DNA of 44,927 nt from a phage. The stretch lies in sequence record PZ871095.1. One strand, written 5' to 3'. The translations under genes and the position numbers were made by a program. How positions within the stretch are numbered: position 1 is the stretch's first letter; each line of letters begins with the position of its first letter. Under the pieces are notes generated by a model, which searched no databases, was not told where the DNA came from, and saw only the letters and a program-made list of their open reading frames with translations. Positions 6,144-43,327 of the stretch are shown piece by piece.

Positions 6144-6178
6144 TTTGTTTTCCTTCATATCTCTGTTGGTGTGCAACC

Positions 6179-6208
6179 AATATAATGCAACCAACATACG
6201 CAATGCAA
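6179..6208 (-). promoter_or_regulatory. putative sigma70-type promoter for the minus-strand gene pair (TTGCAT-N18-TATATT)
   Basis: Minus-strand reading cgcTTGCATtgcgtatgTTGGTTGCATTATATTGGTTGCAC; contains two copies of the recurring TTGGTTGCA motif; about 30 nt upstream of the ATG at 6143. Confidence 0.4.
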
Positions 6209-11012: not shown

Positions 11013-11043
11013 TTTGGTCGCTTAAATAGCGAGTGATAATATG

Positions 11044-16196: not shown

Positions 16197-16937
16197 ATGT
16201 TAACGAAAAAGGTTAAAAGCGATATCGCCGCGCACGTTGCGGCGTGTCTGCCGGAAGAAGCCTGCGGCCTGGTGGTCATGGTGGGTCGTAGGCAAGTGTT
16301 CGTCCCATGTCTGAACGTATTTGAAGACCCGACCGGCGTGCGCTCACGCAAAGACGCGTTTACTATTAGTGATATGGCCTGGATGGATGCCGAGGATATG
16401 GGCGACGTCGTGCGCGTAGTCCACTCGCATCCGGGCCAGCGCGAGCTTACCCCATCACTGGGAGACGTTAACGGATGCAACGGCAGCGGCGTAGTCTGGA
16501 CCATCACTAACGAATATGGCGACTTTATCGAGATCGACCCTGAAGACCCGCCGCTGGTAGGCCGCCGATTTGTTCTCGGAATTACAGATTGTTATGGCCT
16601 CGTCATGGACTGGCACAAAAAGCAGGGCGTAAACCTGCCAGACTTCCGCGTGCCGTATAACTGGTGGGAGACAGGCGAAAATCTGTATATGGATAACTGG
16701 TACGGCGCGGGCTTCAGGGAATGCGAGGAGAATACGCCGGGGGCGATGGTCATCATGCAGATTAGCGCGCCAGTGCCTAACCACGCTGGGATATTCCTTC
16801 CGGGCAACCAACTACTACACCATATCTACGGCAGTCTGTCGAGCGTAGTCCCCTTCCGGGCAGGATTTTTCCGCGACAATGTGGTTAAATGGGTCCGTCA
16901 TAAAGACCTACCGGGGAATATCACAGAATGGCAATGA
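16197..16937 (+). CDS. tail assembly protein (lambda K-like, MPN/JAB plus NlpC/P60-like)
   Basis: 246 aa; HSHPG metal-binding motif typical of MPN/JAB domains; position in the M-L-K-I-J order. Confidence 0.75.
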   Translation: MLTKKVKSDIAAHVAACLPEEACGLVVMVGRRQVFVPCLNVFEDPTGVRSRKDAFTISDMAWMDAEDMGDVVRVVHSHPGQRELTPSLGDVNGCNGSGVVWTITNEYGDFIEIDPEDPPLVGRRFVLGITDCYGLVMDWHKKQGVNLPDFRVPYNWWETGENLYMDNWYGAGFRECEENTPGAMVIMQISAPVPNHAGIFLPGNQLLHHIYGSLSSVVPFRAGFFRDNVVKWVRHKDLPGNITEWQ

Positions 16938-22212: not shown

Positions 22213-22292
22213 GGTATCATCCCCTATATTTGGTTGAGTTTTAGTATTACACCGCTCAACCAGGATTGCAACCAATTTATGAGGATTTAGCT

Positions 22293-24047
22293 ATGGCGGC
22301 GGGTACTCTATCCGTAACGAATAACAGCAAGGCGGTTGTTGGGGTTGGCACGACGTTTACCGCGCTGAAGGCTGGCGACTTCCTGTCGCTGGTAGTGGGG
22401 CAAGTCCCTTACACTGTCGCTATTGCATCCGTAGAAAGTGACACCGCGCTTACGCTGGTGCTGCCGTTCGATGGCCCAACGGCAACCGGCCTCGCATGGG
22501 ATAGCGTGGCGCGCGATACAATGTCGCTTGCGACTATGGGCGTAACCGTCCAGGCGCAGAAAGCATTGCGCTTGCTGATTGCAGATGAGAACAACTGGCG
22601 CGCAATCTTCGGCGACGATGAAGAAATCACAGTGACGTTACCTAACGGGCAGGTTATGCAGGGCATGTCATGGGGCTATCTGTCACAGTTGATGAAACAG
22701 ATCGACCCCGTTGAGATGCGCAACCTGCAACAACAAGCCGCCGCATCTGAAGCAGCCGCGCAAGGATTTCGTAACGAGGCTGAAGGATTTCGAGACGGCG
22801 CGCAAGGATACCGCAACGAGGCGCTCCAATTCCGCACCGACTGCGAAGGGCTGAAGAACGAAACGACAAACCTTCGCAACGATGCGCTCCAATTCCGCAC
22901 CGACTGCGAAGGGCTGAAGAACGAAACGACAAACCTTCGCAACGATGCTAACACAGCTAAGACTGGCGCGGAGACGGCACGCGATCAGGCGCAGAACATC
23001 GCCGACGGTATGGACCCTGGACAGTATATGCAGAAATCTGCAAACCTGAGCGATGTAGTGGATAAGGCGCAAGGCCGCGCGAATATGGGTCTTGGCACTA
23101 CAGATGCCGTGGAGTTTGGTGGGGCCACCCTCAATGGTCACACCCGCATCAATGGCTCGTTGCTGTTGGGGCGTAACCAGTGGGATGGGTCTAGCTGGGG
23201 GAGCTACGGACTACAATCGTCATTCGTCATCATGTCGCCGGATGGAGACTCCGAGCCGGGATTTTACATCAGGCCGCTATCGGGTGCGCCTGGGTACGCA
23301 ACGTCGTTCACCTATAATCTCGCGATTAATCTTTTCAGCACCAGTGCTCGCATCAAGGCGGTTAACTTCTCATCCAGCACTACGACTATGGGATATAACG
23401 AGATGTGGTCACGTGCATGTTTCCAGGGGCAGCCATACGAGGCCCAGGCGGGGGTTGAGAACTACCAATCGCTTGTCGCAGGTACTTGCGGTACGGTATC
23501 ACACGGATTTTACGGTGGCGTTGCGTTCGGCATGATGACTGCTGGCGGGGATGGGTGGCCTGTCGGTCAGATCTCGATCGGCACGCAGGACAGAGCCGCT
23601 GATGGCACTATCGGATTACAAATGCACTTCCGTTTCCATTCATCCGGTAACATTACGTATACGGGGCCGGCGGGGTCGGGGTCATTCCAGCAAATCCCGG
23701 CATCTGACCGCAACATTAAGCATGATATTAAAGACGATAAATCCAGCACAGCATACGATAACATTAGAGCCATTCGATTCCGTAATTTCGTATTTAATGA
23801 TGACGAGCAGGAGCGTATTCGTCGCGGGGTTATCGCACAGGAGCTTGAAGAAATCGACCCGCTTTATGTTAAGCACCGCGAATACCACAACATGGAGCTT
23901 AACGGGCCGAAGATTACTCGACTGGAGCTTGACACGACGCCGCTGTTACTGGACACAATGCGAGCGTTGCAGGATACGATTAAGCAGGTGGAGGAGTTGA
24001 AGGCCGAGATCGCAGCTATGAAACAGGTGGAGGAGTTGAAGAAATAA
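22293..24047 (+). CDS. tail fiber protein with C-terminal intramolecular chaperone (S74 peptidase-like) domain
   Basis: 584 aa from ATG 22293 (GAGGA ribosome-binding site); SDRNIKHDIKD... segment characteristic of autoproteolytic fiber chaperone domains; internal exact tandem repeat. Confidence 0.8.
   Translation: MAAGTLSVTNNSKAVVGVGTTFTALKAGDFLSLVVGQVPYTVAIASVESDTALTLVLPFDGPTATGLAWDSVARDTMSLATMGVTVQAQKALRLLIADENNWRAIFGDDEEITVTLPNGQVMQGMSWGYLSQLMKQIDPVEMRNLQQQAAASEAAAQGFRNEAEGFRDGAQGYRNEALQFRTDCEGLKNETTNLRNDALQFRTDCEGLKNETTNLRNDANTAKTGAETARDQAQNIADGMDPGQYMQKSANLSDVVDKAQGRANMGLGTTDAVEFGGATLNGHTRINGSLLLGRNQWDGSSWGSYGLQSSFVIMSPDGDSEPGFYIRPLSGAPGYATSFTYNLAINLFSTSARIKAVNFSSSTTTMGYNEMWSRACFQGQPYEAQAGVENYQSLVAGTCGTVSHGFYGGVAFGMMTAGGDGWPVGQISIGTQDRAADGTIGLQMHFRFHSSGNITYTGPAGSGSFQQIPASDRNIKHDIKDDKSSTAYDNIRAIRFRNFVFNDDEQERIRRGVIAQELEEIDPLYVKHREYHNMELNGPKITRLELDTTPLLLDTMRALQDTIKQVEELKAEIAAMKQVEELKK
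22821..22946. repeat. exact 63-bp tandem duplication (2 copies) inside the tail fiber gene
   Basis: gcgctccaattccgcaccgactgcgaagggctgaagaacgaaacgacaaaccttcgcaacgat appears twice back to back, encoding ALQFRTDCEGLKNETTNLRND twice. Confidence 0.9.
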
Positions 24048-24053
24048 TGAGAA

Positions 24054-24076
24054 GGGGCCATACGGCCCCTTTTTTA
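24054..24076. terminator. hairpin terminator between convergent genes (GGGGCC-atac-GGCCCC + TTTTTT)
   Basis: Perfect GC stem with T6 on the plus strand; the rightward fiber gene and the leftward early block converge here. Confidence 0.65.
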
Positions 24077-24649
24077 GTTTGAGTTTTCCCAGTCCATTTT
24101 GCGCCGCACCAGCGGGCTTTCGTAATACTCCTTTCCCTCCACTTCCACCAAAGGCCAGTCATTAACAATCACGTATGGCTCCGCGATATCCTCGATCACG
24201 CCGTGCGCACTATGTTGCCCGAAATCTACGCTAACCAGGATAACACCGGCAACGCGACGGGTAAGATACTCGCGAGCGCAACGCGCCTCTACCAGTCCGC
24301 GACGGATGCCGCTGGTGGCCTTAACTTCGTAGGTCCATACGGCATCGATCACATGCTCACGGAAGTCTGGCCCGGACTTCACCTTGCGCTTGCCGACCAT
24401 GATAATATCGCCGCGGTCAATGGTGTTGGCGCTAAACAGGCCGGTACGCATTAGCAAACCTTGCGGGATACAGCTACGCCCGCCCGCCTGCCCTTCGAGG
24501 TACATGCCTGCAAACATTTCGCCCAGCACACCGACGAGTCTGCTTTGCTTGCACGCGTCGGACTTTAGGCGCCACTGGTCAAACTCGATGCTTGCGATCA
24601 TTGCCGCCAGGTGGAATTGTTTACCGGATATTTCATATTCGCCGTACAT
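24074..24649 (-). CDS. hypothetical protein, possible PD-(D/E)xK-type nuclease
   Basis: 191 aa, ATG with AAGGAGG ribosome-binding site; D...EVK arrangement (IDAVWTYEVKAT) compatible with a restriction-endonuclease-like fold; weak call. Confidence 0.5.
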   Translation of the reverse strand: MYGEYEISGKQFHLAAMIASIEFDQWRLKSDACKQSRLVGVLGEMFAGMYLEGQAGGRSCIPQGLLMRTGLFSANTIDRGDIIMVGKRKVKSGPDFREHVIDAVWTYEVKATSGIRRGLVEARCAREYLTRRVAGVILVSVDFGQHSAHGVIEDIAEPYVIVNDWPLVEVEGKEYYESPLVRRKMDWENSN

Positions 24650-24691
24650 CGTGTGGTCCTCCTTGATGCGGGCCGAAGCCCGCGATTAGAA

Positions 24692-25246
24692 TTATTTCAG
24701 TGCGCCAGTCACCAGTGTTTTTTCCATGTTGCGGAAGTCTTCCGGCGTCATGAGGATTTTGGACCCGTCTTCGCCAGTTAGAACGACCATAGGCTGGACG
24801 TCTTGATCTGCAATGCCGAAATTGGCGGCTTTGACAGTCTTTCCGAACGAGGCCACAGTCTCCTCGGCAACGCGCATCGCACTGTTATACGCATTAATCT
24901 CGCCATCAAGACGCACGGACAGACCTTTGAGGCTTTCAAACTGTTCTGCCGTTGTATCGACCTGAATCTCGTCATGCACGGTCATGTAAGACTCGCCCAG
25001 CAATGCGGCATACGCTACCAGGTCGACGATATTGTCTTCCTGGTGCTTACGGTGCTGGCGCACCAGCTTCAGGCAAATCAGGAAGGTCCAGGCTTCTTGC
25101 TCGGTTAGGTCGCGACCGGTAAGAGCGTTAAACACGGCGGCGATTTGTTTAGCGCTGCGTTCTTCTTTCGCGTTGTCATAGCCGTTTGCTTTCCCGCGCT
25201 GCTCCATAGTGGTGGCGGCGTTTTTGCAGTATTCGTATGCTTTCAC
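24692..25246 (-). CDS. hypothetical protein
   Basis: 184 aa ORF with GTG start in the leftward block; no motif recognised. Confidence 0.5.
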   Translation of the reverse strand: MKAYEYCKNAATTMEQRGKANGYDNAKEERSAKQIAAVFNALTGRDLTEQEAWTFLICLKLVRQHRKHQEDNIVDLVAYAALLGESYMTVHDEIQVDTTAEQFESLKGLSVRLDGEINAYNSAMRVAEETVASFGKTVKAANFGIADQDVQPMVVLTGEDGSKILMTPEDFRNMEKTLVTGALK

Positions 25247-25309
25247 AGTATTACCCTTTTTAGTGAGGGGGCTGTATTGCCCCGACGAGTTAACTATAAT
25301 GCAACCAAC

Positions 25310-25780
25310 CTATTGGTTGCAAGTGAATTTTGCAACGTTTATTGCGTAAATTTTCGGAACCAAATCACCACACGCCCGACGAATTGCCGCGATGTTCTTC
25401 TCGCAATCTTCAATGATGACCAGTTCCGACACGTCTGCGTAGCAGACCATTTTGAATACAGCGCACGCCTTAAACTCTGGCGGCGGGGTGTCGTCCAGCA
25501 TGTGGCGCATAAACAACCGGCCGTTCGGGAAGACCTCCAATTGCTCGGCGGTGGTGTCCCAACATTCTCGCTGCCGGTTGGTCAGATACGCGATCTCGAA
25601 GCCTTGCTCTTTATACATGCGCAGTAGCGGCAGCATATCCATGTTAAGGTCTTCGCGGACATGCGCCTTGTGCCACTTCGCCCAAAAGGTGGATTTAGTT
25701 TTTATGCCCGGCACCAAGTCGGCACGCGCATCACTTGAACCGTTAATAACGCCATCCAAATCGCAAATCAGTAATTTCAT
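25310..25780 (-). CDS. HAD-superfamily hydrolase (putative nucleotidase/phosphatase)
   Basis: 156 aa; N-terminal LLICDLDGVI matches HAD motif I (DxDG); ATG start. Confidence 0.65.
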   Translation of the reverse strand: MKLLICDLDGVINGSSDARADLVPGIKTKSTFWAKWHKAHVREDLNMDMLPLLRMYKEQGFEIAYLTNRQRECWDTTAEQLEVFPNGRLFMRHMLDDTPPPEFKACAVFKMVCYADVSELVIIEDCEKNIAAIRRACGDLVPKIYAINVAKFTCNQ

Positions 25781-26001
25781 TTTAAACTCTCAATAAGGGT
25801 CTGTCGGGCGCTTCGCGCAGTAAAGGAGTTGCACACGAAATGGCAACGCTGAGTCATGACAAGCCAACCGGTGAGGTCAAGGCCCATGATGCGTCCGGGG
25901 CGAGACGCGCGCACCACATGATTGCGCCGCGGGTCAATGCAGAAGTCTTTTTGCATATGGTCTACAACCGCGGGGTCGCGGTCAACGATTAAGATATTCA
26001 A
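25777..26001 (-). CDS. small hypothetical protein
   Basis: 74-aa ORF filling the gap between the HAD and Dam genes; TTG start preceded by AAGGAG; stop overlaps the HAD ATG (ATGA). Confidence 0.35.
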   Translation of the reverse strand: MNILIVDRDPAVVDHMQKDFCIDPRRNHVVRASRPGRIMGLDLTGWLVMTQRCHFVCNSFTARSARQTLIESLK

Positions 26002-26467
26002 GGAGTTCTCCTTCGCTCATTATTTCAATTTGTGCGCTGCCGATGGGTGGCGCTTCGTCAAAGATTATCAGTTGCTGGCACTTATTATTGCTAGGCCCGA
26101 CTTCACCGGTTACAGCGTGTATAAATCTAATCCGCCAGTCCAGAAGAATTATCAGGTTTGCAGTCTTCCGGGCCAGCTTCGCCCACTTCGTCGACGTGTC
26201 CTGATTCAGTAGCATGACAGTACGGCGTCCGTGCGCTGCGCACTCGACCCACGGCAGCGGATCGGAATACGGCGGATTGCACCACTTCCACCCTTTCAAC
26301 TCGGACCAGTCCACATCAAGCGCGCTGTGTTCCGCCGTGAAGTAACGCGGGAGCAGGTGGTTTGCATCGCTTGCCGCCATATCGTAACGGAATCGGTATT
26401 TCCGACGAAGCGGTTTAAATAAAGCTGGCGGCGTGCGCCAGCCATCCTTCTGCTCACTCTTCTGCAT
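25982..26467 (-). CDS. DNA N6-adenine methyltransferase (phage Dam-type)
   Basis: 161 aa with catalytic NPPY motif (WCNPPYS) typical of N6-adenine methyltransferases; ATG start. Confidence 0.8.
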   Translation of the reverse strand: MQKSEQKDGWRTPPALFKPLRRKYRFRYDMAASDANHLLPRYFTAEHSALDVDWSELKGWKWCNPPYSDPLPWVECAAHGRRTVMLLNQDTSTKWAKLARKTANLIILLDWRIRFIHAVTGEVGPSNNKCQQLIIFDEAPPIGSAQIEIMSEGELLEYLNR

Positions 26468-26912
26468 GATCTGGATCTATCGCATACAAGGCAATTTTCT
26501 CACCACTGTTTAGAACGCGTTGCAGGCGCTTTGCTCCATCGTCGCTGAGCCGTCGGCAATCGGAGTAGTAGCTACCGTTTTTGCGCCACGCCATAAGCAC
26601 CAGGTCTTTACGGTCGATCTTCGTTGTGCGACCTTTTGGGCGCACGTACTCCTCGGCACGTTTGCAATGCTCGCGCAAACCTTCGGCAGTGATGCGGTTT
26701 AGTGCAACGCTGGTTGTGTATCCGGTGCGCTGCATAATCCCCATCAATTCGAAAAGCAGTTCGAAGCGCTCCTCTAATTCCTTGCGCATCTTCTCCTCGC
26801 CTTCATAGCTTGCCAGGTAGGTATCCGCCAGCGCGTTCGCCCGTTCGGCTTGCTCTCGGGCTTCGAGGCATTGCGCGGCCCAGTAATTTTTCTCTTCTTG
26901 TAAAATTTTCAT
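26454..26912 (-). CDS. hypothetical protein
   Basis: 152 aa, ATG start, overlaps the Dam start; charged helical N-terminus, basic C-terminal half. Confidence 0.55.
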   Translation of the reverse strand: MKILQEEKNYWAAQCLEAREQAERANALADTYLASYEGEEKMRKELEERFELLFELMGIMQRTGYTTSVALNRITAEGLREHCKRAEEYVRPKGRTTKIDRKDLVLMAWRKNGSYYSDCRRLSDDGAKRLQRVLNSGEKIALYAIDPDHAEE

Positions 26913-26959
26913 CGTGTTGTCTCCAGGTATTAAAAAGGGCGTCCAAACCGGACACCCTC

Positions 26960-26988
26960 AATATAATGCAACCAATCTAATTATGCAA
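26960..26988 (-). promoter_or_regulatory. putative sigma70-type promoter (TTGCAT-N17-TATATT) with TTGGTTGCA motif
   Basis: Minus-strand reading aTTGGTTGCATaattagaTTGGTTGCATTATATTgaggg, about 45 nt upstream of the ATG at 26912. Confidence 0.4.
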
Positions 26989-26993
26989 CCAAT

Positions 26994-27317
26994 TTACGAA
27001 TAAAAATTTGGGTCGCGTGCAACGTCTACCAGATACAGATTGCTGATTCGGTTGCCGTAGTGGCCTGGTGTTCGCTGGCGGCACACAACGGCGTAGCCTG
27101 GAGGAATTGTATTGCCGGTCGCGATAATCCACGCCACGCGTGCGCCCGATAGCGTTTTGCCGTTGCATTCGATGCGCGTGCCGCCATCGGCAGTGTTGAG
27201 GTTGCCAATTTTGCAGCCGGTGGACTTCAGACGAATGACGCCGGTTTTGCTGTCGTAGGAGAATAACTGGTTAGTCATTGCAACCGAAAAATCAATGGCT
27301 TCGAATGTAGTATTCAT
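26994..27317 (-). CDS. HNH-like endonuclease-family protein (possibly degenerate)
   Basis: 107 aa; C-terminal PGHYGNRISNLYLVDVARDPN resembles the HNH core (H...N...N), but the first conserved His region looks substituted. Confidence 0.4.
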   Translation of the reverse strand: MNTTFEAIDFSVAMTNQLFSYDSKTGVIRLKSTGCKIGNLNTADGGTRIECNGKTLSGARVAWIIATGNTIPPGYAVVCRQRTPGHYGNRISNLYLVDVARDPNFYS

Positions 27318-28009
27318 TTTAAATTTTCCTCATTGACCGCTATCGCGAAGCCGCGCGGGGTGAGCGACCGGATTAATTTTGTGCGGGCTGATTTGCCTCC
27401 GAGGCGACTATACTGCTTCGAGTACCCTTTTTCAACGAAAACAGGTTTCTTCTCTGGCATACGGAAGCCGTTACCGGTCCATAAGCAGGTCAGCTTCGGA
27501 TATGAATCGCGGGCGTTGATGTATTCCGGGAAGAGCGGGTGTACGTCATCCTCCGGCAGATATCCCCCATACTCCCACGGGTCGAATGAGTGGTCCGGCT
27601 TACGCCACTGGGTGGAAAGCACACTGCGCGGATTCTCAATCATATATGGCACTTCGAAGAAGTCACCCAGGTAAGCGGCGATCTTCGCGGTGCGCACCGC
27701 CTTAAGCTGAAAGGCTGGGTCTTTTGCACGCTTGCGCGGGAAAGCTGGCGCACCGCTCACTGCCAGATCCGTGCACGGAGGAAACGCATAGATGATATCT
27801 GGCGTACCGAAATCGCCATTCATCGCACGGTCTACAAAGTCCAGATCGATAAACTCATTGCGATAGCGGATTCCGCGACCATAAATCCGGTAGTCAAGGT
27901 AAGACCCGTGATCGGCTTCGGAGTAGTTGAAGCAATAACACTTATGCCCCATCTCGGCAGCACGCTCAATCATCAAACCGCTGCCGTCAAACAATGACCA
28001 GATTATCAT
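27314..28009 (-). CDS. compact C5-cytosine methyltransferase-like protein
   Basis: 231 aa with motif I-like LFDGSG, motif IV-like FPPCTDLAVSG (catalytic PC) and motif VI-like ENP; far shorter than typical C5 methyltransferases; coupled to neighbours by ATGA overlaps. Confidence 0.55.
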   Translation of the reverse strand: MIIWSLFDGSGLMIERAAEMGHKCYCFNYSEADHGSYLDYRIYGRGIRYRNEFIDLDFVDRAMNGDFGTPDIIYAFPPCTDLAVSGAPAFPRKRAKDPAFQLKAVRTAKIAAYLGDFFEVPYMIENPRSVLSTQWRKPDHSFDPWEYGGYLPEDDVHPLFPEYINARDSYPKLTCLWTGNGFRMPEKKPVFVEKGYSKQYSRLGGKSARTKLIRSLTPRGFAIAVNEENLK

Positions 28010-29430
28010 TTGCGCGCCTTTTTAGCTTTCATGTATTCCATCAAGTCGTCCTGTATATCTCGCTTACTGTCGCGACGCTCGGCGACCAATTCGTCCAATG
28101 TCCCGCGAGCCTGGATAATGTAGACGAATACCGGTCGAGGGTGTCCGGCCTGCATCTGGCGAACCGGCCCGATACGTTCAACGATCTGCGAAAAGTGCTC
28201 AAAGTTCCAGGTATCGGAGAATATTGCCAGGTGATGTCCGCCGTCCTGCAAGTTAAGGCCGTGGCCCGCCGATGCCGGGTGTGCAAACATGATGGGGATC
28301 TCGCCCCTGTTCCACGCTTCCATATCCTTATTGCCCTGCTTACCTTTACCCAACGCAACGCCGTGCGGAAATTTCTTCTTAAGACGTGCCAGGTCATGCT
28401 TATACTGATACGCAACGAGCAACGGCGCGCCGTTCAACTCCTCCACGATACTTTCCAGTGCGTCCAGCTTCGCGTCGTGAATCTTCACCCACTCGTCGGT
28501 CCGTTCGCCGTCTTCGTCCACCTTATACACAGCGCCGGAAGCAAGCTGAAGGCACTTAATTGTCTTCGATGCCGCGTTCGCCGCTTCCACTGTTCCGCTT
28601 TCCAGTTCGGCAAATAGCTCGCTTTCAAACTGGTCGTAGATCTTGCGGGCTTTCTTCGGCAGGTCCACAACAACCGGCGTATAGATTGGCTTGTCGCATC
28701 CGAAGTATTCAGCCGCGTCAACGGTTAGTGATACGTCAGACAGGCGTTGTTGTATTTCTTTCTCGGAGTTCTTTAGCGGGGCGTGCTGCATCGTGAAGCT
28801 GCCAGGCTTAACAGGCTTGCTAATGAACCAGCGATCGGTGAATGCCTTATAGCTACTGCCGAGGCGTTCGCCACCGTCGACAAACCACGTCTGACCCCAT
28901 AAGTCTTTTAGCCCGTTTGGCGCTGGTGTGCCGGTAAGGTTAATCCAGCGCTTGACGTGTTTATGTGCAATCGCTGCCAGTGCGCGGGCGCGCTTGCTCC
29001 CCTGCTTGCTACGATAGCCTTTCAGCTTAGTCGATTCATCGGCAACAACGACCGTAAAGGGCCACGCATCGCCGTAATAGTCGACCAGCCACTCAACCAC
29101 ATCGTAGTTAACACAAACCACGTTAGCGTCGCTCTCAAGCGCCGCAATACGGTCCTTCTCCGGCCCGGTGCCGTCTACGACCAGCAGGGATGAGAATCGC
29201 CATTTCTCCTGTTCCGGGGGCCATGTACCCGACGCAACACGCAGCGGGGCCAGCACCAGTACGCGGTCCTCATGATGGGACAGGACGCCAGTCTGGAACA
29301 TTTTATTCAGCGCCCACATTGTCGCGCCGGTTTTACCCGACCCCATTGTCGCCCAGATATTACATCGCTTATGCTTGAGGATGAACGCGGTTATCAACTT
29401 CTGATATTCGCGGCGTCGGAATCGTGCCAT
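28006..29430 (-). CDS. SNF2/DEAD-like superfamily 2 helicase
   Basis: Walker A GSGKTG, DExx-like VVADEST and conserved helicase C-terminal motifs; start placed at ATG 29430 (MARFRRREYQ) rather than the upstream alternative at 29520. Confidence 0.85.
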   Translation of the reverse strand: MARFRRREYQKLITAFILKHKRCNIWATMGSGKTGATMWALNKMFQTGVLSHHEDRVLVLAPLRVASGTWPPEQEKWRFSSLLVVDGTGPEKDRIAALESDANVVCVNYDVVEWLVDYYGDAWPFTVVVADESTKLKGYRSKQGSKRARALAAIAHKHVKRWINLTGTPAPNGLKDLWGQTWFVDGGERLGSSYKAFTDRWFISKPVKPGSFTMQHAPLKNSEKEIQQRLSDVSLTVDAAEYFGCDKPIYTPVVVDLPKKARKIYDQFESELFAELESGTVEAANAASKTIKCLQLASGAVYKVDEDGERTDEWVKIHDAKLDALESIVEELNGAPLLVAYQYKHDLARLKKKFPHGVALGKGKQGNKDMEAWNRGEIPIMFAHPASAGHGLNLQDGGHHLAIFSDTWNFEHFSQIVERIGPVRQMQAGHPRPVFVYIIQARGTLDELVAERRDSKRDIQDDLMEYMKAKKARK

Positions 29431-29434
29431 TTCT

Positions 29435-29653
29435 TTATTCCGCCTTTTTCCAGACTTCGGTTTCACTGTTCCAGTTCCTTTTTGTAGCGTCGTAGTTGGT
29501 GGCGTGTCCGATGTGCACACCGGTAGCCCGGAAGCTCTTAAATTTTTGCCAGCACACCGTCAACGGCAGCGGATCATTCATGCCCGCGATAAACCATACG
29601 CGATCGCCCGGTTTACATTCGCCCAGCTTGGTTAGTCGGTAATGTTCTTTCAT
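29435..29653 (-). CDS. small hypothetical protein
   Basis: 72 aa from ATG 29653 preceded by GGGAGA; stop lies 5 nt upstream of the helicase start. Confidence 0.4.
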   Translation of the reverse strand: MKEHYRLTKLGECKPGDRVWFIAGMNDPLPLTVCWQKFKSFRATGVHIGHATNYDATKRNWNSETEVWKKAE

Positions 29654-29665
29654 CGTCATGTCTCC

Positions 29666-29689
29666 CAAAAATGGCGGGACAAGCCCGCC
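29666..29689 (-). terminator. rho-independent terminator on the minus strand (GGCGGG-cttgt-CCCGCC + TTTTT)
   Basis: Stem-loop followed by a T-run when read on the minus strand, directly after the zinc-ribbon gene; the stem includes a GCGGGACA copy. Confidence 0.6.
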
Positions 29690-29696
29690 GTATTAA

Positions 29697-29870
29697 TTAT
29701 TTTTGTTTTGCACGGTAGCGGCGCTGCCGTTCGCGCTCTTTCTTATTGCGGCACGATTTGCACTCTGCCCGGTGCCCGTCTGGACTGCGCGCAGTCTTAC
29801 CGGTGTATTTGTGGAACTGGGATAGCGGCTTGACACAGCCGCAATTACTACAACGTTTTTCTTCAATCAT
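29697..29870 (-). CDS. small zinc-ribbon protein
   Basis: 57 aa from ATG 29870; two CxxC pairs (CSNCGC ... CKSC) and a basic C-terminus. Confidence 0.5.
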   Translation of the reverse strand: MIEEKRCSNCGCVKPLSQFHKYTGKTARSPDGHRAECKSCRNKKERERQRRYRAKQK

Positions 29871-29910
29871 CTCTAAAATCCTCGATATGGCTAACCGGCA
29901 CACTATACCG

Positions 29911-30189
29911 CTATGCGACCAATTCAGCAACCAATAAATCGCAGTCGGATATGTTGTCGATAACGCGAACGTCAGCACCGCGGCGGGCCATCCGTTCATG
30001 TTCGCGTACCTGGTGCGGCTTCGGTTTTCCACCGGGGCGCTTCACTTCGACGAACACTATTTTGCCGTTGATGATAATAATCAGGTCGGGCGCACCTGCG
30101 CGCCCCTCCCATGCCAGTTTTCGGCAGAATCCGCCGACCTCTTTCACCCGTTTCATCAGGTGACTTTGAATCTTGCCTTCTGGTGTCAT
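29911..30189 (-). CDS. VRR-NUC domain nuclease
   Basis: 92 aa with PDLIII...VFVEVK arrangement (PD-(D/E)xK core) typical of VRR-NUC proteins. Confidence 0.7.
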   Translation of the reverse strand: MTPEGKIQSHLMKRVKEVGGFCRKLAWEGRAGAPDLIIIINGKIVFVEVKRPGGKPKPHQVREHERMARRGADVRVIDNISDCDLLVAELVA

Positions 30190-30377
30190 TTGGTCTGCAA
30201 CTCCACGTTACGCAGACGAAGGTCTACCGGTATGTCCGATCGCCCGGTTAGCGCCAGCGCCAGGTTTTCAGGCGTGACGAGTGCCGTAATGGTCTTGCCA
30301 CGTTCCAGTCTAATGACGATTCGAATCTCGTCATCGTCCGCCGCGCCAGCGCGCATAATGCTCATTTCTGCTTTCAT
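30186..30377 (-). CDS. small hypothetical protein
   Basis: 63 aa, ATG with AGGAAG ribosome-binding site, between the polymerase and VRR-NUC genes. Confidence 0.45.
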   Translation of the reverse strand: MKAEMSIMRAGAADDDEIRIVIRLERGKTITALVTPENLALALTGRSDIPVDLRLRNVELQTK

Positions 30378-30381
30378 AATC

Positions 30382-32673
30382 TTACTTCCTGTACCTGTAC
30401 ATAATGTCGCCTTCTGCGGCGAGTGGGAAGCCTTTCGCCCAAACTGGCAGGTCGCACATCAGCGCGCATAGCTCCTCGGTCGTGTAGTCGTCAGTATCCG
30501 GCACTTCTGTGATCAATTCGTCGTGTACTGACAGGACGATTTCATAGCCCGCGGCTTCAACGCCGGGCATGGACCATGCGAGAATATCGCGACACAACGC
30601 CTGTACGATGTTCTCCGTAAGTTTGCCGCCGTAGGTATACTGGAATCCCCACTGGCGCGTCGTCTGATTCTCGCCCTGATATTTAATGTGTGTGCTGGTG
30701 CGCTTCTTGCCGGTGTCTTCATCAATCTCGGTAGTGACAGACAGCGCGATGCCGGGGTAGCTCATGATGCGCCCCGACGGCAACTCAATTTTCAACCACC
30801 ACCCCGCGGCGTCCGGGTCGTCGCGCTCCTCGTCGAAGGTTGGGTCGTGCTTCGCCTTCGTGCGCACAATCTTGAGCGCTTTTCTACCGTCCGGGCGAAC
30901 GTTCGCGCCAGCCCAGTATGCTTTACCCGGATTGCGGATTGCACACAACACCGCGTCCTCAAGCTCGGCCCAAAAGGCTACCGTCTTCGGGTGAGCCTCA
31001 CGCCACATGCGTTTGATCGCGTCACAGGTAAGCCATACGTTTTTCGGCAGTATGTATGTTGGGCGCTCGTCCTTCTTGCCCGGCTTCGGCGGGCGCTTCG
31101 CTTCGTTAATGCGAGCGTACTCATAACCACGTTTCGCCGCCGCCCAAATGTGGTCCGGGAACGTGCCTTTCATCACGTCCGCCATAGTGTAAAGGTCGAG
31201 TCCCAGGTTTTTAGCGAACTGCAAGAACGCCGCGACGCCGCCACCATAGCCCAGTCCCAATTCGCACGCCTTACCAATCTGGCGTAAGTCCTTGCGGTTG
31301 GCTTTAATGTAATCCGGGTCAAGGCCGAACATCTTACCGGCAGTCTCACAATAGATATCGCGACCGGCCTTAAACACCATTAGCGCGGTTTTCTCGCCAG
31401 CAATCCAGGCAAGGCCGCGCCCTTCCACGTTGGAGTAGTCCGCTACGACAAACTTCTTGCCCTTCGCCGGAATAATGCACCCGCGAACGGTCGAGGCCGT
31501 TAGCTTCGATATGTCATACGCCCAGTGTGCGGTCCCGCGTAACAGGGAGTTGATGCCGTTGGTGAGCATGTGCGACCGGACCCAAAACGAGACGTCGCTT
31601 TCACCCTCGCGGCGTTTAATCTTCCCTTCGTGGTCGTCGCTGTACTCGCCACGCGCCAGGTTTTGAGGTTGAAAGCCTTTACCGGCCCAGCGTAGCGTGC
31701 GCTTTGCCCCACCATACTGAAGACAACCACGGCGGCGACCATCGGCAGACAGGCCATTGACGAGCGGATTGTATTTAGTAGATGCGGTTGATGACGCACC
31801 GAGGCGCATTTCGATCAGCGCTTTGCCCTCGTCCGGGAAGTCCGGGTCTTCCAGTAGGTCGTTTAGCGTGGATTTCTGCGCGTTGTGGATTGTGAACGCC
31901 GGGGCGATATCACGCAGGATTGGCAGGAAGTCATTGCCTGTCAGTTTACCGCCAAATCGCTCCCAGGCTTCCTCCTTCAATTCTTCCTTATGCGCCTGCA
32001 CCGCTTTGATCGCGGCGTTCGCCAGGTCAACGTCCACATAGAAGCCGCGGTCGTTGATCAACTGGTCGATAAGCAGGATTTCATCTTCCTTCGGAGTATT
32101 ACCCCAGTCCGGTATGCGCCAGTAGACCTCACGCATCGCGATAATATCCAGCGCGGCATATCGCAGAAATTTGGCCCATTCTTCAGGGTGAGTCTCGCGA
32201 GTGTAGCGGCGGATTTTGTAAGTCTTAGGGGTCGGCTTACAGAATCGTTTGATCAGCGCCTTGCCTGCCTTATCCTTCGCGTGCTCTGCGTCAACGCCCA
32301 GCACCTGGCACTGCATATCGAGGCTACCGGGCAGCGCGTGGCGAAAGGCCATAATCATGGTGTCTTCGATCTGGCTTACCGGCAGGTCAATACCCCACTT
32401 CTCGCGAATAACCAGGCGGTCAAACAGTAGGCCGTTAGCCATCACGATTTTTGCTTTCTTGCGGGATACATGGCGGAGCGCTTTGCGCAGTTCACGCGGC
32501 ATTGTGGGGGATTCAGTGCAATCCCATGTCTGCACGCGGCCCTCGTCGATGGCGTATGTGCAAATCATAATCTCGGTGGTTGGGTGCTCTGCGTAGGCGT
32601 ACGCCCCTACTTTCTTCAGGTCCACCCCGCTAAATGTCTCGGTATCGAGAAACAGGCGTTCGAAGTCTTTCAT
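30382..32673 (-). CDS. DNA polymerase I-like (family A) with N-terminal 3'-5' exonuclease region
   Basis: 763 aa; exonuclease-like N-terminus (LFLDTETFSG), motif A-like ADYSNVEGR and motif C SVHDELITEV characteristic of family A polymerases. Confidence 0.9.
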   Translation of the reverse strand: MKDFERLFLDTETFSGVDLKKVGAYAYAEHPTTEIMICTYAIDEGRVQTWDCTESPTMPRELRKALRHVSRKKAKIVMANGLLFDRLVIREKWGIDLPVSQIEDTMIMAFRHALPGSLDMQCQVLGVDAEHAKDKAGKALIKRFCKPTPKTYKIRRYTRETHPEEWAKFLRYAALDIIAMREVYWRIPDWGNTPKEDEILLIDQLINDRGFYVDVDLANAAIKAVQAHKEELKEEAWERFGGKLTGNDFLPILRDIAPAFTIHNAQKSTLNDLLEDPDFPDEGKALIEMRLGASSTASTKYNPLVNGLSADGRRRGCLQYGGAKRTLRWAGKGFQPQNLARGEYSDDHEGKIKRREGESDVSFWVRSHMLTNGINSLLRGTAHWAYDISKLTASTVRGCIIPAKGKKFVVADYSNVEGRGLAWIAGEKTALMVFKAGRDIYCETAGKMFGLDPDYIKANRKDLRQIGKACELGLGYGGGVAAFLQFAKNLGLDLYTMADVMKGTFPDHIWAAAKRGYEYARINEAKRPPKPGKKDERPTYILPKNVWLTCDAIKRMWREAHPKTVAFWAELEDAVLCAIRNPGKAYWAGANVRPDGRKALKIVRTKAKHDPTFDEERDDPDAAGWWLKIELPSGRIMSYPGIALSVTTEIDEDTGKKRTSTHIKYQGENQTTRQWGFQYTYGGKLTENIVQALCRDILAWSMPGVEAAGYEIVLSVHDELITEVPDTDDYTTEELCALMCDLPVWAKGFPLAAEGDIMYRYRK

Positions 32674-32840
32674 TGCTTTATCCTCACTACGGCGTCAGCG
32701 CTGCCGATCATGGAGAAGATGCCGTCGGTCAGGGCAATCTCTTCGCCATTGTTGCGAATCTCGGCAACTGTGAAATATTCCCCCAGTAGCTTGGACCATA
32801 CTTGCATTCCGACTTTTACTTCGCTGGCTTTAATACGCAT
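32670..32840 (-). CDS. small hypothetical protein
   Basis: 56-aa ORF (MRIKASEVKVGMQVW...) whose TGA overlaps the polymerase ATG (ATGA); not in the supplied track because it is under 60 aa. Confidence 0.4.
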   Translation of the reverse strand: MRIKASEVKVGMQVWSKLLGEYFTVAEIRNNGEEIALTDGIFSMIGSADAVVRIKQ

Positions 32841-32855
32841 TTTTCATTGTCCTAT

Positions 32856-32880: not shown

Positions 32881-32898
32881 GAATAGTGGGATTTGCCC

Positions 32899-33683: not shown

Positions 33684-33995
33684 TTTTCCAATTCCTCATT
33701 TTCACATGTATCGGGGTTATTGTGAGCCACCCCGTCCGGCTTGGTTGCTAATCTACTTGGTTGCGCCTGAGCGGTCAAGCATTTTCATTAAAAAGATTTC
33801 TGGTAACGTAGTCGGTAGCGTTCTCGATCCAGCTTAATGGCGGGCGGTCGATATTCTTCGCCACCCAATCGGCGGCAGCTTCGCTATAACCGTCATCCAG
33901 CCAGCGGGTCGGATGCCGAATCATCCACGCCATGCACACAATGCAGGATAAAGCCCAGCGCGCCGATAACAAACATCAATAATATTGCGAATACT

Positions 33996-36625: not shown

Positions 36626-36654
36626 ATATTAGATTGGTTGCAGAAGGGAGTCAA
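36626..36654 (-). promoter_or_regulatory. putative leftward early promoter (TTGACT-N17-TAATAT)
   Basis: Minus-strand reading TTGACTcccttctgcaaccaatcTAATAT; near-consensus sigma70 hexamers with 17-nt spacer containing GCAACCAA; heads the leftward gene block. Confidence 0.5.
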
Positions 36655-36698: not shown

Positions 36699-36827
36699 AA
36701 CCAATAAGAGACAATGAGACGGGGGTATTATTACACGCGTGCGCGCCCGTTTCAATATCCAAAGGATTTGACACCGTGCCGTTTTGGGTGTAGTTTCGTT
36801 GGTCATTAACCAACTGAGGGCAGAGCA

Positions 36828-37157
36828 ATGAATGTAAACGACGCAATCGAAATGTTAACGAAGACTGTTTGCAGTGAGACAAGCCGGTCATGGGCATACA
36901 CCGATGCCGTGGGGGCTGTGTTATTTGAAATCGAACGACTGCGGCTTACCGAAAAAGAATTGCGCGCCAGGCTGGAACTACTCAACGGTACAGCAGCAAG
37001 CAAGCTGCAAAAGCACAATGAAGAAATGGAAGAATACAAAAAGCAGGTTATCCGTTTGCGCGACGAAGGGAAATCATGGGCGATGATTGCCGAGTTGACC
37101 GGAATTAATCAGAGCACAGTGCGCTCCTGGGTACGCAATAATAAAACTTCTAAGTAA
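36828..37157 (+). CDS. putative HTH DNA-binding regulator
   Basis: 109 aa; C-terminal KSWAMIAELTGINQSTVRSWV resembles a helix-turn-helix; first rightward gene of the divergent control region; GAGGG ribosome-binding site. Confidence 0.6.
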   Translation: MNVNDAIEMLTKTVCSETSRSWAYTDAVGAVLFEIERLRLTEKELRARLELLNGTAASKLQKHNEEMEEYKKQVIRLRDEGKSWAMIAELTGINQSTVRSWVRNNKTSK

Positions 37158-39432: not shown

Positions 39433-39507
39433 ATTTTGCGCGCGTTGGTTGCCGATATGGGAATTCCCATATCGCTAAAAGATTAAATTTTGCGCGCATT
39501 GGTTGCC
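39424..39507. repeat. two 30-bp direct repeats flanking a perfect 20-bp palindrome
   Basis: AAAGATTAAATTTTGCGCGC(G/A)TTGGTTGCC at 39424-39453 and 39478-39507; palindrome GATATGGGAATTCCCATATC at 39454-39473; first repeat includes the primase stop codon. Confidence 0.8.
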
Positions 39508-39591
39508 ATTTTGGGTGTTTTTATCATGTCGTATTGGTTGCCGTGTTGTGTAGCTATAATGAATAGTTATGCAATAAAACTGCATAAAGTA

Positions 39592-39749: not shown

Positions 39750-39909
39750 CATAAAATCCGGGGATTGCAAAATACACGGCAGCATGATGCGAAGTGCGGT
39801 CGTTGACGAACTAGGCAACCAATGCGAGTTGTATTATGCGGAGTGAAAAATGCGGTTTGCAGTCACAGCGGATAGCGATCAACTTTTTCATGCGCGTGAT
39901 TAATATTGG

Positions 39910-39938
39910 TTGCACACCCCCAGGCGTCCTGCTATATT
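39910..39938 (+). promoter_or_regulatory. putative sigma70-type promoter (TTGCAC-N17-TATATT) flanked by two TATTGGTTGCACACC repeats
   Basis: -35 and -10 hexamers with 17-nt spacer about 30 nt upstream of the ATG at 39967; the -35 lies within one TTGGTTGCA copy and the second copy follows the -10. Confidence 0.4.
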
Positions 39939-39966
39939 GGTTGCACACCAACATGAGGACTGAACA

Positions 39967-43276: not shown

Positions 43277-43327
43277 GCTTGACTCGCAACCAACACAGGG
43301 GCCATACTGCAACCAATCAACTGGAGG

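Follow-up and report, generated by a model that had tools for sequence, protein, structure and literature searches.

A short asymmetric box in predicted promoters of a Dhillonvirus and related phages is a candidate operator

Introduction

The C1 immunity repressor of the temperate phage P1 recognizes asymmetric 17-bp operators that are dispersed over the genome and overlap promoters. The stoperators bound by gp71 of mycobacteriophage L5 are 13-bp asymmetric sites, present in about 30 copies per genome in one orientation, at which elongation is blocked in the lysogen. The MotA box of phage T4 is a 9-bp asymmetric sequence at position -30, in one orientation, and its use needs both MotA and AsiA. 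The DnaA box is an asymmetric 9-mer found at the origin and in promoters, where binding represses.

We analyzed a box that shares features with each of these sites. It is found in a 44,927-nucleotide stretch of phage DNA (PZ871095.1; "the window" is this whole stretch) from a Dhillonvirus, an HK578-like virulent siphophage of E. coli. As with the P1 C1 operators, the boxes are asymmetric and many scattered copies overlap promoters, an arrangement in which one protein serves a multi-promoter regulon. Unlike the P1 operators, they are in a virulent phage and are only ~10 bp long, and no repressor or lysogeny genes are annotated in relatives. Like the L5 stoperators, they are short, asymmetric, perfectly conserved sites, ~20-30 in number, in short intergenic regions; unlike the stoperators, they occur in both orientations and inside promoter cores. 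The window has the short site and the many intergenic copies of the P1 C1 and L5 type (20 copies, 17 of them intergenic), with no immunity or lysogeny module annotated in relatives and with mixed orientations in both directions of transcription.

The resemblance to T4 MotA boxes is that, in a virulent phage, a 9-bp asymmetric box replaces a poor -35 at many promoters used by the host polymerase. The boxes differ from those of T4 in lying from -39 to +3 and in both senses; scans of ~40 window proteins with Pfam or PHROGs gave no MotA- or AsiA-like domain. Like DnaA boxes, they form arrays of asymmetric 9-mers with variable spacing and orientation by a replication-type region and also lie singly over promoters. 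The sequences are unrelated (TTGGTTGCA shares three of the eight specified positions of TTATNCACA), and the region beside the helicase-primase gene is a putative origin at most. Finally, as with the lambda Cro and CI operators, boxes overlap divergent early promoters by a small helix-turn-helix (HTH) gene, and we propose a lytic turn-down of early genes. Lambda's operators are dyad-symmetric, few, and local, and they co-vary with the regulator. In contrast, the box is asymmetric, dispersed, and constant even where the neighboring HTH protein has been replaced by a non-homologous one.

Literature searches for the motif and for promoters and transcriptomes of Dhillonvirus, HK578, and eiAU gave neither an account of the motif nor transcription-start or time-course mapping for these phages. 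The promoters described below are predictions.

Results

The box is an asymmetric 8-mer concentrated in intergenic DNA

The initial annotation had reported a 9-mer that occurred at least 15 times, always between genes. The exact 9-mer, TTGGTTGCA, is present 11 times in the window (0.55 expected; at most 2 in shuffled sequences), at 6172, 6186, 22267, 25300, 25313, 26967, 26984, 36634, 39906, 39937, and 43308. The motif is therefore far above chance at the places listed, but the exact count is lower. Six other listed sites (29926, 33741, 33757, 39445, 39499, and 43285) carry the core of the box and differ at the ninth base, and copies at 39534 and 39814 had been omitted. We found that the conserved unit is an asymmetric 8-mer core, (A)TTGGTTGC(a/c/g), preceded preferentially by A and followed by a variable ninth base. 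There are 20 copies in the window. Information is confined to ~10 bp with none beyond, and the flanks are without symmetry.

Seventeen of the 20 core copies are intergenic. Intergenic DNA makes up 8.6% of the window, and the density there is 60-fold in excess (binomial P = 7e-16). Two further copies (25313 and 29927) lie in the last codons of one gene and, at the same time, inside the promoter of the next gene. Only one copy is truly internal to a gene, and the description of all copies as intergenic comes close to being correct:

16804..16811, minus strand: gene-internal copy, reads TTGGTTGCC.

This copy is probably a chance or coding coincidence and outside the system.

Boxes are embedded in promoter cores in both orientations

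We found that all clustered copies lie within -39 to +3 of sigma-70-like promoters. The predicted promoters and promoter-like sites are as follows.

6165..6208, minus strand: promoter P6180, TTGCAT-18-TATATT; boxes at 6187-6194 (-22..-15) and 6173-6180 (-8..-1, extended to TTGGTTGCACACCAAC).
22243..22275, minus strand: promoter P22270, -35 TTGCAA and extended -10 TGtAATACT; single box at 22268-22275 (-39..-32); the target is a leftward cor-like small gene.
25293..25322, minus strand: promoter P25310, -35 TTGCAA (25317-25322), 18-bp spacer, -10 TATAGT (25293-25298); boxes at 25301-25308 (sense, -22..-15) and 25313-25320 (antisense, overlapping the -35).
26960..26992, minus strand: promoter P26980, TTGCAT-17-TATATT, with a hairpin and T-run directly after; boxes at 26985-26992 (-39..-32) and 26968-26975 (-22..-15).
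29902..29934, minus strand: promoter P29925, TTGCTG-17-TATAGT, with a 57-aa zinc-finger gene directly downstream; boxes at 29927-29934 (-39..-32) and, degenerate (TTGGTCGC), at 29915-29922 (-27..-20).
33741..33778, minus strand: promoter P33750, TTGACC-17-TAGATT, with the SSB gene downstream; two antisense boxes at 33757-33764 (-21..-14) and 33741-33748 (-5..+3).
36626..36654, minus strand: promoter P36640L, the leftward promoter of a divergent control region, TTGACT-17-TAATAT; one antisense box, 36634-36641 (-22..-15), filling the spacer.
39445..39560, plus strand: promoter-like P39540; its third box (39534) is followed by TATAAT at 39555-39560.
39906..39952, plus strand: promoter P39920, the first at the physical genome end, TTGCAC-17-TATATT; boxes at 39906-39913 (-39..-32) and 39937-39944 (-8..-1, extended to TTGGTTGCACACCAAC).
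43279..43316, plus strand: promoter P43300, rightward and just past a terminator, TTGACT-18-CATACT; two antisense boxes at 43286-43293 (-29..-22) and 43309-43316 (-6..+2).
36768..36813, plus strand: promoter of a 109-aa HTH gene, TTGACA-17-TAGTTT, without an exact box, followed by the invariant near-palindrome TTGGTCATTAACCAA.
11014..11042, plus strand: promoter-like site in the tail module, with a degenerate TTGGTCGC at the -35 and a conserved extended -10, TGaTAATAT.

Promoter and paired copies fall at -39..-32, -34..-14, or -8..+3, and the hexamer spacers are 15-18 bp. Boxes were found upstream of leftward early genes and also of rightward genes, as first described. P6180 drives a leftward small gene and the Nmad5 gene within the structural module. 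Box-free promoter-like sites, most with an extended -10, are conserved before structural genes; examples are those at 6235, 11034, 41761, and 44870. A generic promoter scan of the window gave no overall excess (15 found, compared to 14 in shuffled sequences).

The initial annotation had called 25300-25321 a perfect 22-bp palindrome. It is not: two inverted 9-bp arms surround CCTA, which is not self-complementary and includes the stop codon of the upstream gene. This pair, in P25310, is conserved in relatives, and it is the only inverted pair (25301/25313) among ~11 clusters. The other pairs are mostly direct repeats, with start-to-start distances of 12, 14, 16, 17, 23, 31, 35, and 54 bp (9 bp in one relative), and we found no dyad of constant spacing. 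The suggestion of an operator for a dimeric regulator is thus only partly borne out. An operator is the better reading of the boxes, but an asymmetric box that occurs mostly in direct repeats, with one inverted pair, gives no support for a dimer.

We also considered that the element might act as RNA or DNA secondary structure, in terminator hairpins or 5' stabilizers. For the inverted pair at 25300-25321, the folding energy is -9.8 kcal/mol (z = -5.5) and a consensus scan marks the pair as terminator-like, and TTGGT-N5-ACCAA stems follow three promoters. These small stems are weak (-3 kcal/mol), however, and the clusters other than the inverted pair have single or directly repeated boxes without a pairing partner. 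Antisense copies would give a different RNA, and an Rfam covariance-model search of the whole window at the gathering score gave no matches. We consider a structural role very improbable.

Boxes do not behave as a plain promoter element

A reading as an extended promoter consensus had also been put forward, and part of it stands. The box supplies the -35 (TTGCA) in five or six promoters, and part of its conservation could therefore reflect promoter function. The reported arrangement in which TTGGTTGCAT lies directly against a TATA(T/G)T -10 and another copy gives a TTGCA -35 was found at 26980, 25310, and 6180. The box could accordingly be a phage-specific element read by host RNA polymerase alone, that is, an extended -35 (TTGG plus TTGCA) and an initiation-region element that make strong promoters. 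In P22270, P26980, P29925, and P39920, TTGCA is at exactly -35..-31, 17-18 bp from a good -10, and the antisense box of P25310 gives TTGCAA as a -35 with an 18-bp spacer. The ninth base is A at the predicted +1 in P6180 and P39920. The box is also kept across phages of several enterobacterial hosts with the same polymerase.

We found that orientation and position do not fit this reading. Four of ten promoters have antisense boxes, so the single orientation of a sigma-70 core element is lacking, and the fixed distance of 16-18 bp to the -10 was found only for the copies at -39..-32. Three of these four promoters (P33750, P36640L, and P43300) are conserved and have an independent -35, TTGAC(A/C/T), with the antisense boxes in the spacer or at the start site and without a usable -10 on their own strand. 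A pure promoter consensus fails because of these three promoters. In addition, the spacer copies at -22..-15 fall where polymerase makes few base-specific contacts, the copies at 39445, 39499, and 39815 near a repeat/hairpin region have no convincing hexamer partners, and TTGCAT and TTGCAC match TTGACA at only three of six positions. Recognition by host polymerase alone is, in our judgment, quite improbable.

The registers recur, with four copies at exactly -39..-32, and an activator could suit this equally well. In such a scheme, an early phage factor would switch on a "middle" regulon in the manner of MotA, with the promoter of the HTH gene as the sole true early promoter. Consistent with this, the four promoters have the box at this position in the same sense together with a weak -35 (TTGCAT, TTGCAC, or TTGCTG), and among the promoters without an exact box, the HTH gene has the one closest to consensus. 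An activator needs fixed geometry, though, and boxes of either orientation occur, some of them in the spacer and some at the start site. The promoters with antisense boxes already have a near-consensus -35 and a good -10, P39920 at the entering genome end also has boxes, and the lack of MotA- and AsiA-like domains in the ~40 proteins scanned counts against a MotA-like scheme as well. We regard activation as rather improbable.

Our results are most consistent with operator boxes. The two orientations and the variable spacings of 12-54 bp favor these over a polymerase element or a dyad operator, and ~20 copies inside promoter cores, unchanged across genera, indicate a regulator site rather than a plain promoter consensus.

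The box is conserved within and beyond Dhillonvirus

Each of seven Dhillonvirus genomes contains 18-23 copies of the box. In alignments of orthologous regions, 87% of the columns in boxes are invariant, compared to 54% in neighboring sequence (P = 6e-17), and the 8-mer is unchanged in relatives, in contrast to the drifting spacers and -10 hexamers next to it. Identical boxes, embedded in promoters in the same way, are present in the divergent relatives L007, L009, L011, and L013 and in phages eiAU-183 and 37P2. In L007, L009, and L011, the P36640L locus has two abutting boxes, and an exact antisense box is found at the position of the HTH-gene promoter. The Edwardsiella phage eiAU-183 has 23 copies (2 expected) and the Klebsiella phage 37P2 has 13 (1.4 expected). 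One box of eiAU-183 is in the promoter of the scaffold gene, and a restriction of boxes to non-structural genes is therefore not general. A scan of viral contigs for box pairs gave scattered, chance-like hits among the matches listed.

In the Salmonella phage Shemara, the box is nearly absent. Three copies remain beside the helicase-primase gene and all read TTGGCTGC; two of the three are recognizably syntenic with box positions (the syntenic anchors for variants were the sites before GAATAGTTATGCA and before ACACCAACA-GAGG). In contrast, the Salmonella Dhillonvirus Kenya-K19 retains TTGGTTGC.

No phage RNA polymerase is annotated in the relatives, and none is reported for eiAU (PMC3025963). 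The annotations of three relatives list neither an integrase nor a repressor.

These comparisons bear on whether the phages have co-opted, as the binder, a protein of their hosts that is conserved in Enterobacterales. The hosts of box-bearing phages are all Enterobacterales, and the 8-mer does not differ between phages that share only 31-67% identity in their replication proteins and have non-homologous local HTH regulators. We know of no E. coli regulator with a consensus that matches the box. Those of DnaA, IHF, NtrC, CytR (GTTGCATT), PutA (GTTGCA), and PdhR (ATTGGT-N3-ACCAAT) match it only partially and leave the invariant TTGG plus TTGC unexplained. A search of bacterial genomes for inverted pairs of boxes gave chance-like matches in scattered taxa, with no Enterobacterales among the 80 matches listed. 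The difference between the two Salmonella phages at syntenic sites (TTGGCTGC in Shemara, TTGGTTGC in Kenya-K19) also argues against a host protein and favors one encoded by the phage. We find a host binder doubtful, and the binder is probably phage-encoded and conserved across genera.

A box cluster adjoins the helicase-primase gene and the genome end

Boxes are also clustered by the helicase-primase gene:

39445, 39499, and 39534, plus strand: three TTGGTTGCC boxes directly 3' of the helicase-primase gene.
39815..39822, minus strand: single TTGGTTGCC box beyond the repeat/hairpin region.

P39540 reads into a GAATAGTTATGCA box, GCGGGACA repeats, and a 48-bp hairpin. The lone box is ~50 bp before the position that matches the left genome end of phage WF5505, and the cluster adjoins the terminal-repeat boundary. 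The box recurs most persistently in a cluster at or past the 3' end of the helicase-primase gene, with 4 copies here and ~10 in eiAU-183. Phage Tsm2 has 4 copies inside the end of the gene, and the variant copies of Shemara are at this cluster.

Such persistence at the terminal-repeat boundary might indicate that the boxes serve primarily in replication or genome-end processing, as sites for an initiator or a terminase accessory, and that the promoter copies are secondary. However, 15 of the 19 non-coding copies are in dispersed promoters far from the cluster. The lineage-specific repeats GCGGGACA, GGTGCCA, GGGGGAGA, and TTGCGAGT track the C-terminal domain of the helicase-primase and hence look like the true iterons. 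The box does not change with this domain: it is constant while the domain is only 31-61% identical, and box-bearing phages do not conserve the domain any better than Shemara does. We rejected the C-terminal domain as the binder, since it tracks the lineage-specific repeats instead. In eiAU-183, as an exception, the box is the only arrayed word at this location. We give a primary role in replication or end processing little chance of being correct.

Candidate binding proteins

Two genes of the window were considered as sources of the binding protein:

36828..37157, plus strand: 109-aa protein; it has a long helix and, at the C terminus, an HTH of the Hin/sigma-4 type.
29697..29870, minus strand: 57-aa protein with a Cys4 zinc finger and a basic C-terminal helix.

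The 109-aa protein, the first candidate, is the only clear HTH protein found in the early region of the window. Its gene adjoins divergent promoters and its C-terminal 60 amino acids are invariant. We downgraded it because box-bearing phages outside the Dhillonvirus lineage (eiAU-183 and 37P2) have no homologue. A distant homologue, P0025, was recovered by exact-protein look-up; searches of viral and metagenome contigs for it found nothing. At the same locus, eiAU-183, 37P2, Tsm2, and Shemara encode HTH proteins of the Cro/CI type that are 32-39% identical and differ in their recognition helices, and these were rejected too. The box is unchanged where such non-homologous proteins replace the 109-aa protein, and the co-variation of operator and regulator is thus not seen. 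Gp54 of eiAU, which has a Hin-like HTH, was discarded as well: it is not significantly related to the 109-aa protein, and the small proteins of 37P2 include no analogue that we could find. Co-occurrence of the box with the Nmad5 protein breaks down in 37P2, which lacks Nmad5.

The 57-aa protein is conserved in every genus examined that carries the box. Shemara, in which the box is nearly absent, encodes it as well. No Pfam family matched it at E <= 0.05. It does not have the features of an Ogr/Delta zinc-finger activator: there was no match to Pfam Ogr_Delta, and the boxes are neither at -55 nor dyads. Fold searches with both candidates gave generic HTH or zinc-ribbon matches and no informative match, and a PDB sequence search was uninformative. 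By inference, the 57-aa protein is weakly indicated as the best remaining phage-encoded candidate.

Discussion

The boxes occur non-randomly, are embedded in promoters in both orientations, and are conserved across genera. Based on these results we think it moderately likely that they are operator-type sites of one sequence-specific protein, placed in sigma-70-type promoter cores, and that their most likely effect is to down-regulate non-structural genes. Protein binding and repression, like the identity of the binder, are what we infer from these patterns.

Each ~10-bp box would act as an independent asymmetric unit, with one or two per promoter. Since the boxes overlap either the -35 hexamer, the start site, or the spacer adjoining the -10, a bound protein would be expected to exclude RNA polymerase. 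The predicted targets are the early genes of the terminal repeat, the leftward DNA-metabolism operon, accessory genes in the structural module, and the genes downstream of P43300, past the lysis cluster. The most likely outcome would be a coordinated and timed shut-off, or a dampening, of the box promoters in lytic growth. Down-regulation would spare the box-free promoter-like sites before the structural genes, which mostly have an extended -10. The same protein probably also acts at the repeat/hairpin cluster beside the helicase-primase gene and the genome end.

A broader proposal, which we offer tentatively and think unlikely to hold, is that the boxes form a regulon common to at least three groups of virulent siphophages, namely Dhillonvirus, Eiauvirus, and part of Guernseyvirinae. 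Its reader would be a very small phage protein, with the 57-aa Cys4 zinc-finger protein and its basic helix as the candidate, and would represent a new family of phage transcription factors. This one protein would serve as a mark on the repeat/hairpin region at the genome end and would also turn off every early and middle promoter. Such a dual role, the marking of a region combined with promoter shut-off, would be similar to that of DnaA or SV40 T antigen.

Dhillonviruses are common coliphages that belong to the BASEL collection and serve in studies of defense systems and therapy. For these phages the boxes predict about ten promoters, their co-regulation, and the probable escapers, and they could serve as a practical mark for promoter annotation in more than 160 deposited genomes. 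The boxes also predict one factor that recognizes a 10-bp word fixed across genera. The box and its factor might provide a compact orthogonal operator/regulator pair, and identification of the factor would account for the timing of gene expression across a whole group of siphophages.

Genome organization and the terminal repeat

An 8-kb query from the window (24000-32000) matched 166 phage records; in 144 of them the match spans 80% or more of the query (~90-94% identity). With few exceptions, the records belong to Escherichia, Shigella, Salmonella or Sodalis phages in the genus Dhillonvirus (HK578-like virulent siphophages). The annotations of the relatives include no RNA polymerase. In related Edwardsiella phages, the host enzyme is needed for transcription and no phage transcription factor was recognised (PMC3025963).

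Layout of the window
Window start: small-terminase gene
After window start, rightward: packaging, head and tail genes
24074-36427, leftward: DNA-metabolism operon
36428-36827: divergent control region
Beyond the control region, rightward: gene for a 109-aa helix-turn-helix (HTH) protein, helicase-primase gene, 534-bp non-coding region, small genes, lysis genes and a few more

Positions 1-2026 and 45057-47082 of the relative WF5505 are identical and form a 2,026-bp direct terminal repeat. Its left end corresponds to window ~39871, ~35-40 bp upstream of the first box (see below) of P39920 (predicted promoters are named by window position). The terminally repeated region thus comprises the small genes between 39967 and ~41900, which are probably the first to be expressed.

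An 8-bp box is concentrated between genes

We found that the 9-mer TTGGTTGCA occurs 11 times over both strands of the window (expectation 0.55, maximum 2, in dinucleotide-preserving shuffles). The sites listed in the initial annotation were all recovered with at most one mismatch, but only these 11 are exact; the rest have another ninth base. What is conserved is the 8-mer TTGGTTGC (the box), present in 20 copies, and recast in this way the observation is real and stronger than first stated. Flanking information, assessed over 147 distinct contexts of the site in ten genomes, was confined to an A preceding the box (74%) and, weakly, a/c/g following it; there was no information past ~10 bp and no symmetry around the box.

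The copies had been described as all intergenic. By our own gene map, 17 of the 20 lie in intergenic DNA, which makes up 8.6% of the window (60-fold density excess; binomial P = 7e-16). Two "coding" copies are in the final codons of one gene, within the promoter of the next, and only the copy at 16804 is truly gene-internal. The reported perfect 22-bp palindrome is two inverted boxes flanking CCTA, a centre that lacks self-complementarity and includes a stop codon. Where boxes are paired, they are nearly always directly repeated, their starts lying 12, 14, 16, 17, 23, 31, 35 or 54 bp apart (9 bp in the divergent relative L007).

A different word, GTTGCCG, occurs 45 times across the window, and the 8-mer GTTGCCGT 23 times versus 2.1 expected (e.g., 3090, 6328, 6356, 39448, 39537). 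These copies are almost all genic and occur in either orientation, the sense ones mostly in frame 0; in eiAU-183, Shemara and L013 the same words also rank at the top. The excess could reflect a bias in codons or dipeptides, or else a word with a function.

Boxes lie within the predicted polymerase footprint

Clusters were placed on the best sigma-70-type hexamer pair, with the start assumed to be 7 nt past the -10. All clustered copies were within -39 to +3 of the predicted start. Antisense boxes are found in three promoters with a TTGAC(A/C/T) -35 of their own: P36640L (the leftward promoter of the divergent control region), P33750 and P43300.

Box positions relative to the predicted start
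Sense, -39..-32, TTGCA acting as -35: P22270, P26980, P29925, P39920
Sense, -22..-15, abutting -10: P6180, P25310, P26980
Sense, -8..-1, overlapping the -10 end, ninth base = +1: P6180, P39920
Antisense, over -35: P25310
P36640L, TTGACT-17-TAATAT: antisense, -22..-15
P33750, TTGACC-17-TAGATT: antisense, -21..-14 and -5..+3
P43300, TTGACT-18-CATACT: antisense, -29..-22 and -6..+2

The antisense boxes have no usable -10 downstream on their own strand and therefore cannot be -35 elements of opposite promoters. An independent consensus scan reported the same hexamer pairs for P36640L, P33750, P43300, P25310 and P39920; its total count was not above that of shuffles, so the box promoters stay predictions.

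Directly downstream of P43300 is a 26-codon ORF (43338-43418, MARKDIWVLAIWTTAAFIGMVICELI) with a good ribosome-binding site, probably encoding a small membrane peptide. The divergent control region has two further conserved elements: GACAATGAGAC (36710-36720), upstream of the HTH-gene promoter, and the invariant near-palindrome TTGGTCATTAACCAA (36799-36813), just past the -10 of that promoter. The latter has the form TTGGT-N5-ACCAA(C), as does TTGGTTGCACACCAAC at P6180 and P39920, and a ribosome-binding site follows each of the three.

Promoters with and without the box

Within the terminal repeat, the box is found in the first promoter, P39920. In the DNA-metabolism operon it marks the leftward early promoter and three internal ones. 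It also occurs in the promoters of the two accessory units that run leftward within the structural module (a small gene plus Nmad5; cor), in the promoter following the lysis cluster and in the promoter-like P39540, which reads into the repeat/hairpin region. Downstream of the P39540 -10 is GAATAGTTATGCA (39561-39573), which is conserved in L013 and Shemara and altered in L009; it is similar to a DnaA box, from which it differs at one or two positions.

The exact box is absent from conserved promoter-like sites preceding structural genes, most of which have an extended -10.

Extended -10 sites without an exact box
44870: TGtTATAAT, box-free
6235 and 11034: TGaTAATAT; degenerate box at 11034
41761: TGaTATAGT, box-free

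Conserved box-free sites of the TGnTATAAT type precede the terminase, scaffold and holin genes (44855-44878, 6235-6243 and 41761-41769) and are candidate late promoters. At 26925-26965, 11037-11075 and 41764-41800, a terminator-like hairpin and T-run come immediately after a -10-like hexamer, and a start from the hexamer would fall in the 5' arm of the stem. Upstream read-through would terminate at such sites; locally initiated transcripts would not.

The box is conserved within and beyond Dhillonvirus

Seven complete Dhillonvirus genomes contain 18-23 copies each. In alignments of eleven orthologous regions from up to six genomes, the boxes are invariant and the sequence between and around them drifts (e.g., the P39920 spacer and the stretch separating the two P26980 boxes). 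The -10 hexamers drift as well (TATATT/TAGATT and TAGATT/TAAATT/TACATT). Invariant columns make up 87% of the box versus 54% of other columns in the same alignments (P = 6e-17). The P6180 boxes are retained although the downstream gene differs among genomes.

The box is still a top over-represented word in phages whose helicase-primase is only 45-49% identical. There are 23 copies in Edwardsiella phage eiAU-183 (2 expected), ~10 of them arrayed past the helicase-primase gene; 13 in Klebsiella phage 37P2 (1.4 expected; promoter consensus aaTGTTGGTTGCAATAT); and 12 in Serratia phage Tsm2 (1.7 expected). The same box arrangements recur in eiAU-183 (42946/42934, 18148/18116, 36600), 37P2 (732, 7086, 23540) and Tsm2 (209). 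In some relatives the box lies within the 3' end of the helicase-primase gene (Tsm2, L175 9373-9494, four copies; L007 12522; L174 11233), where TTG GTT GC(n) encodes a conserved ...ELVA... C-terminus.

Strict conservation relative to the promoter hexamers, occurrence in both orientations and variable positions within the polymerase footprint point to a site for a sequence-specific protein rather than for RNA polymerase. Of the two initial readings, extended promoter consensus or operator for a dimeric regulator, operator is the better one; the site is asymmetric, and a dimer on a palindrome is not required.

Candidate binding proteins

A host factor could in principle read the box. Salmonella phage Shemara (Cornellvirus) contains only one TTGGTTGC; all three copies beside its helicase-primase gene are TTGGCTGC, two of them syntenic (before GAATAGTTATGCA, and in the promoter before ACACCAACA-GAGG). 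The Salmonella Dhillonvirus Kenya-K19 retains TTGGTTGC. This comparison makes a host factor less likely than a binder encoded by the phages themselves, with orthologues in the different genera.

The 109-aa protein (36828-37157, + strand) has the one clear sequence-specific DNA-binding domain among ~40 window proteins scanned, matching HTH_23, Sigma70_r4_2 and HTH_28 at residues 65-105. Its model is a long helix plus a C-terminal three-helix HTH (pLDDT 85), and fold searches gave only local resolvase, GerE or sigma-4-type matches. The PHROGs label of the family, "transposase", is probably wrong. The family is limited to Dhillonvirus-like phages; across relatives, the C-terminal 60 residues hardly vary, and the N-terminal 45 are hypervariable and sometimes replaced. 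The box is kept in divergent relatives that have this protein (L007, L009, L011 and L013, the L013 homologue being ~44% identical), and in the first three an exact box lies between the gene's own promoter and start codon. It is disfavoured as the binder because hmmsearch and a pattern scan found no homologue in the box-bearing eiAU-183, 37P2 and Tsm2. At the same locus these phages encode Cro/CI-type HTH proteins, likewise disfavoured since they are 32-39% identical with differing recognition helices. If its regulator were exchanged for a non-homologous protein, a regulon of ~20 fixed sites would be unlikely to persist; both kinds of HTH protein are therefore poor candidates.

The helicase-primase C-terminal domain (31-61% identity) appears to track lineage-specific repeat words beside the gene, which, from this apparent covariation, look like its iterons.

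Lineage repeat words
Window and L007: GCGGGACA
L009 and L013: GGTGCCA
Shemara: GGGGGAGA
37P2: TTGCGAGT

The window has two GCGGGACA arrays, one between the tail-chaperone and tape-measure genes (11779-12064) and one past the helicase-primase gene, adjoining the terminal-repeat boundary (39593-39749). The same 48-bp hairpin, AGTCTTTCAGACTAGACGGGGGTCAA(C/T)GGCCCCCCTCGTCTGAGACTG, follows each.

The only small, well-conserved protein of plausible nucleic-acid-binding build is a 57-aa Cys4 zinc finger with a basic helix (29697-29870, - strand), 62-67% identical in L013, eiAU-183 and 37P2 and ~47-60% in Shemara and Tsm2. It has no Pfam family, and neither Pfam nor fold search gave anything specific. 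In Dhillonvirus and 37P2 a two-box promoter, located where the VRR-NUC gene ends, immediately precedes the zinc-finger gene; eiAU-183 has one gene (gp21) in between. The ORF is unannotated in eiAU-183 (L173 17631-17786), and one record names the protein "kilA anti-repressor". With low confidence, we rank it first among phage-encoded candidates.

Possible function and related systems

The boxed promoters have adequate hexamers of their own, which makes occlusion the simplest mechanism: a protein on the box would block polymerase, giving negative control. The four copies at -39..-32 may instead serve an activator.

In logic, the boxes come nearest to the operators of P1 C1 and the stoperators of L5, both dispersed and asymmetric, and to T4 MotA boxes and DnaA boxes. 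They lack defining features of each. Unlike the phages of the first two systems, this phage is virulent, and no immunity repressor is annotated in three annotated relatives; no MotA or AsiA homologue was found among ~40 window proteins scanned; and the DnaA box is unrelated in sequence. The boxes here are fixed in neither orientation nor position. Within the literature that could be searched, neither the box word nor any promoter or regulator of these phages was mentioned, which does not prove absence. The boxes are best filed as a new case of a dispersed operator regulon of a phage, and they amount to a clean cis-regulatory code shared across genera, in a group of phages that is widely used yet unstudied.
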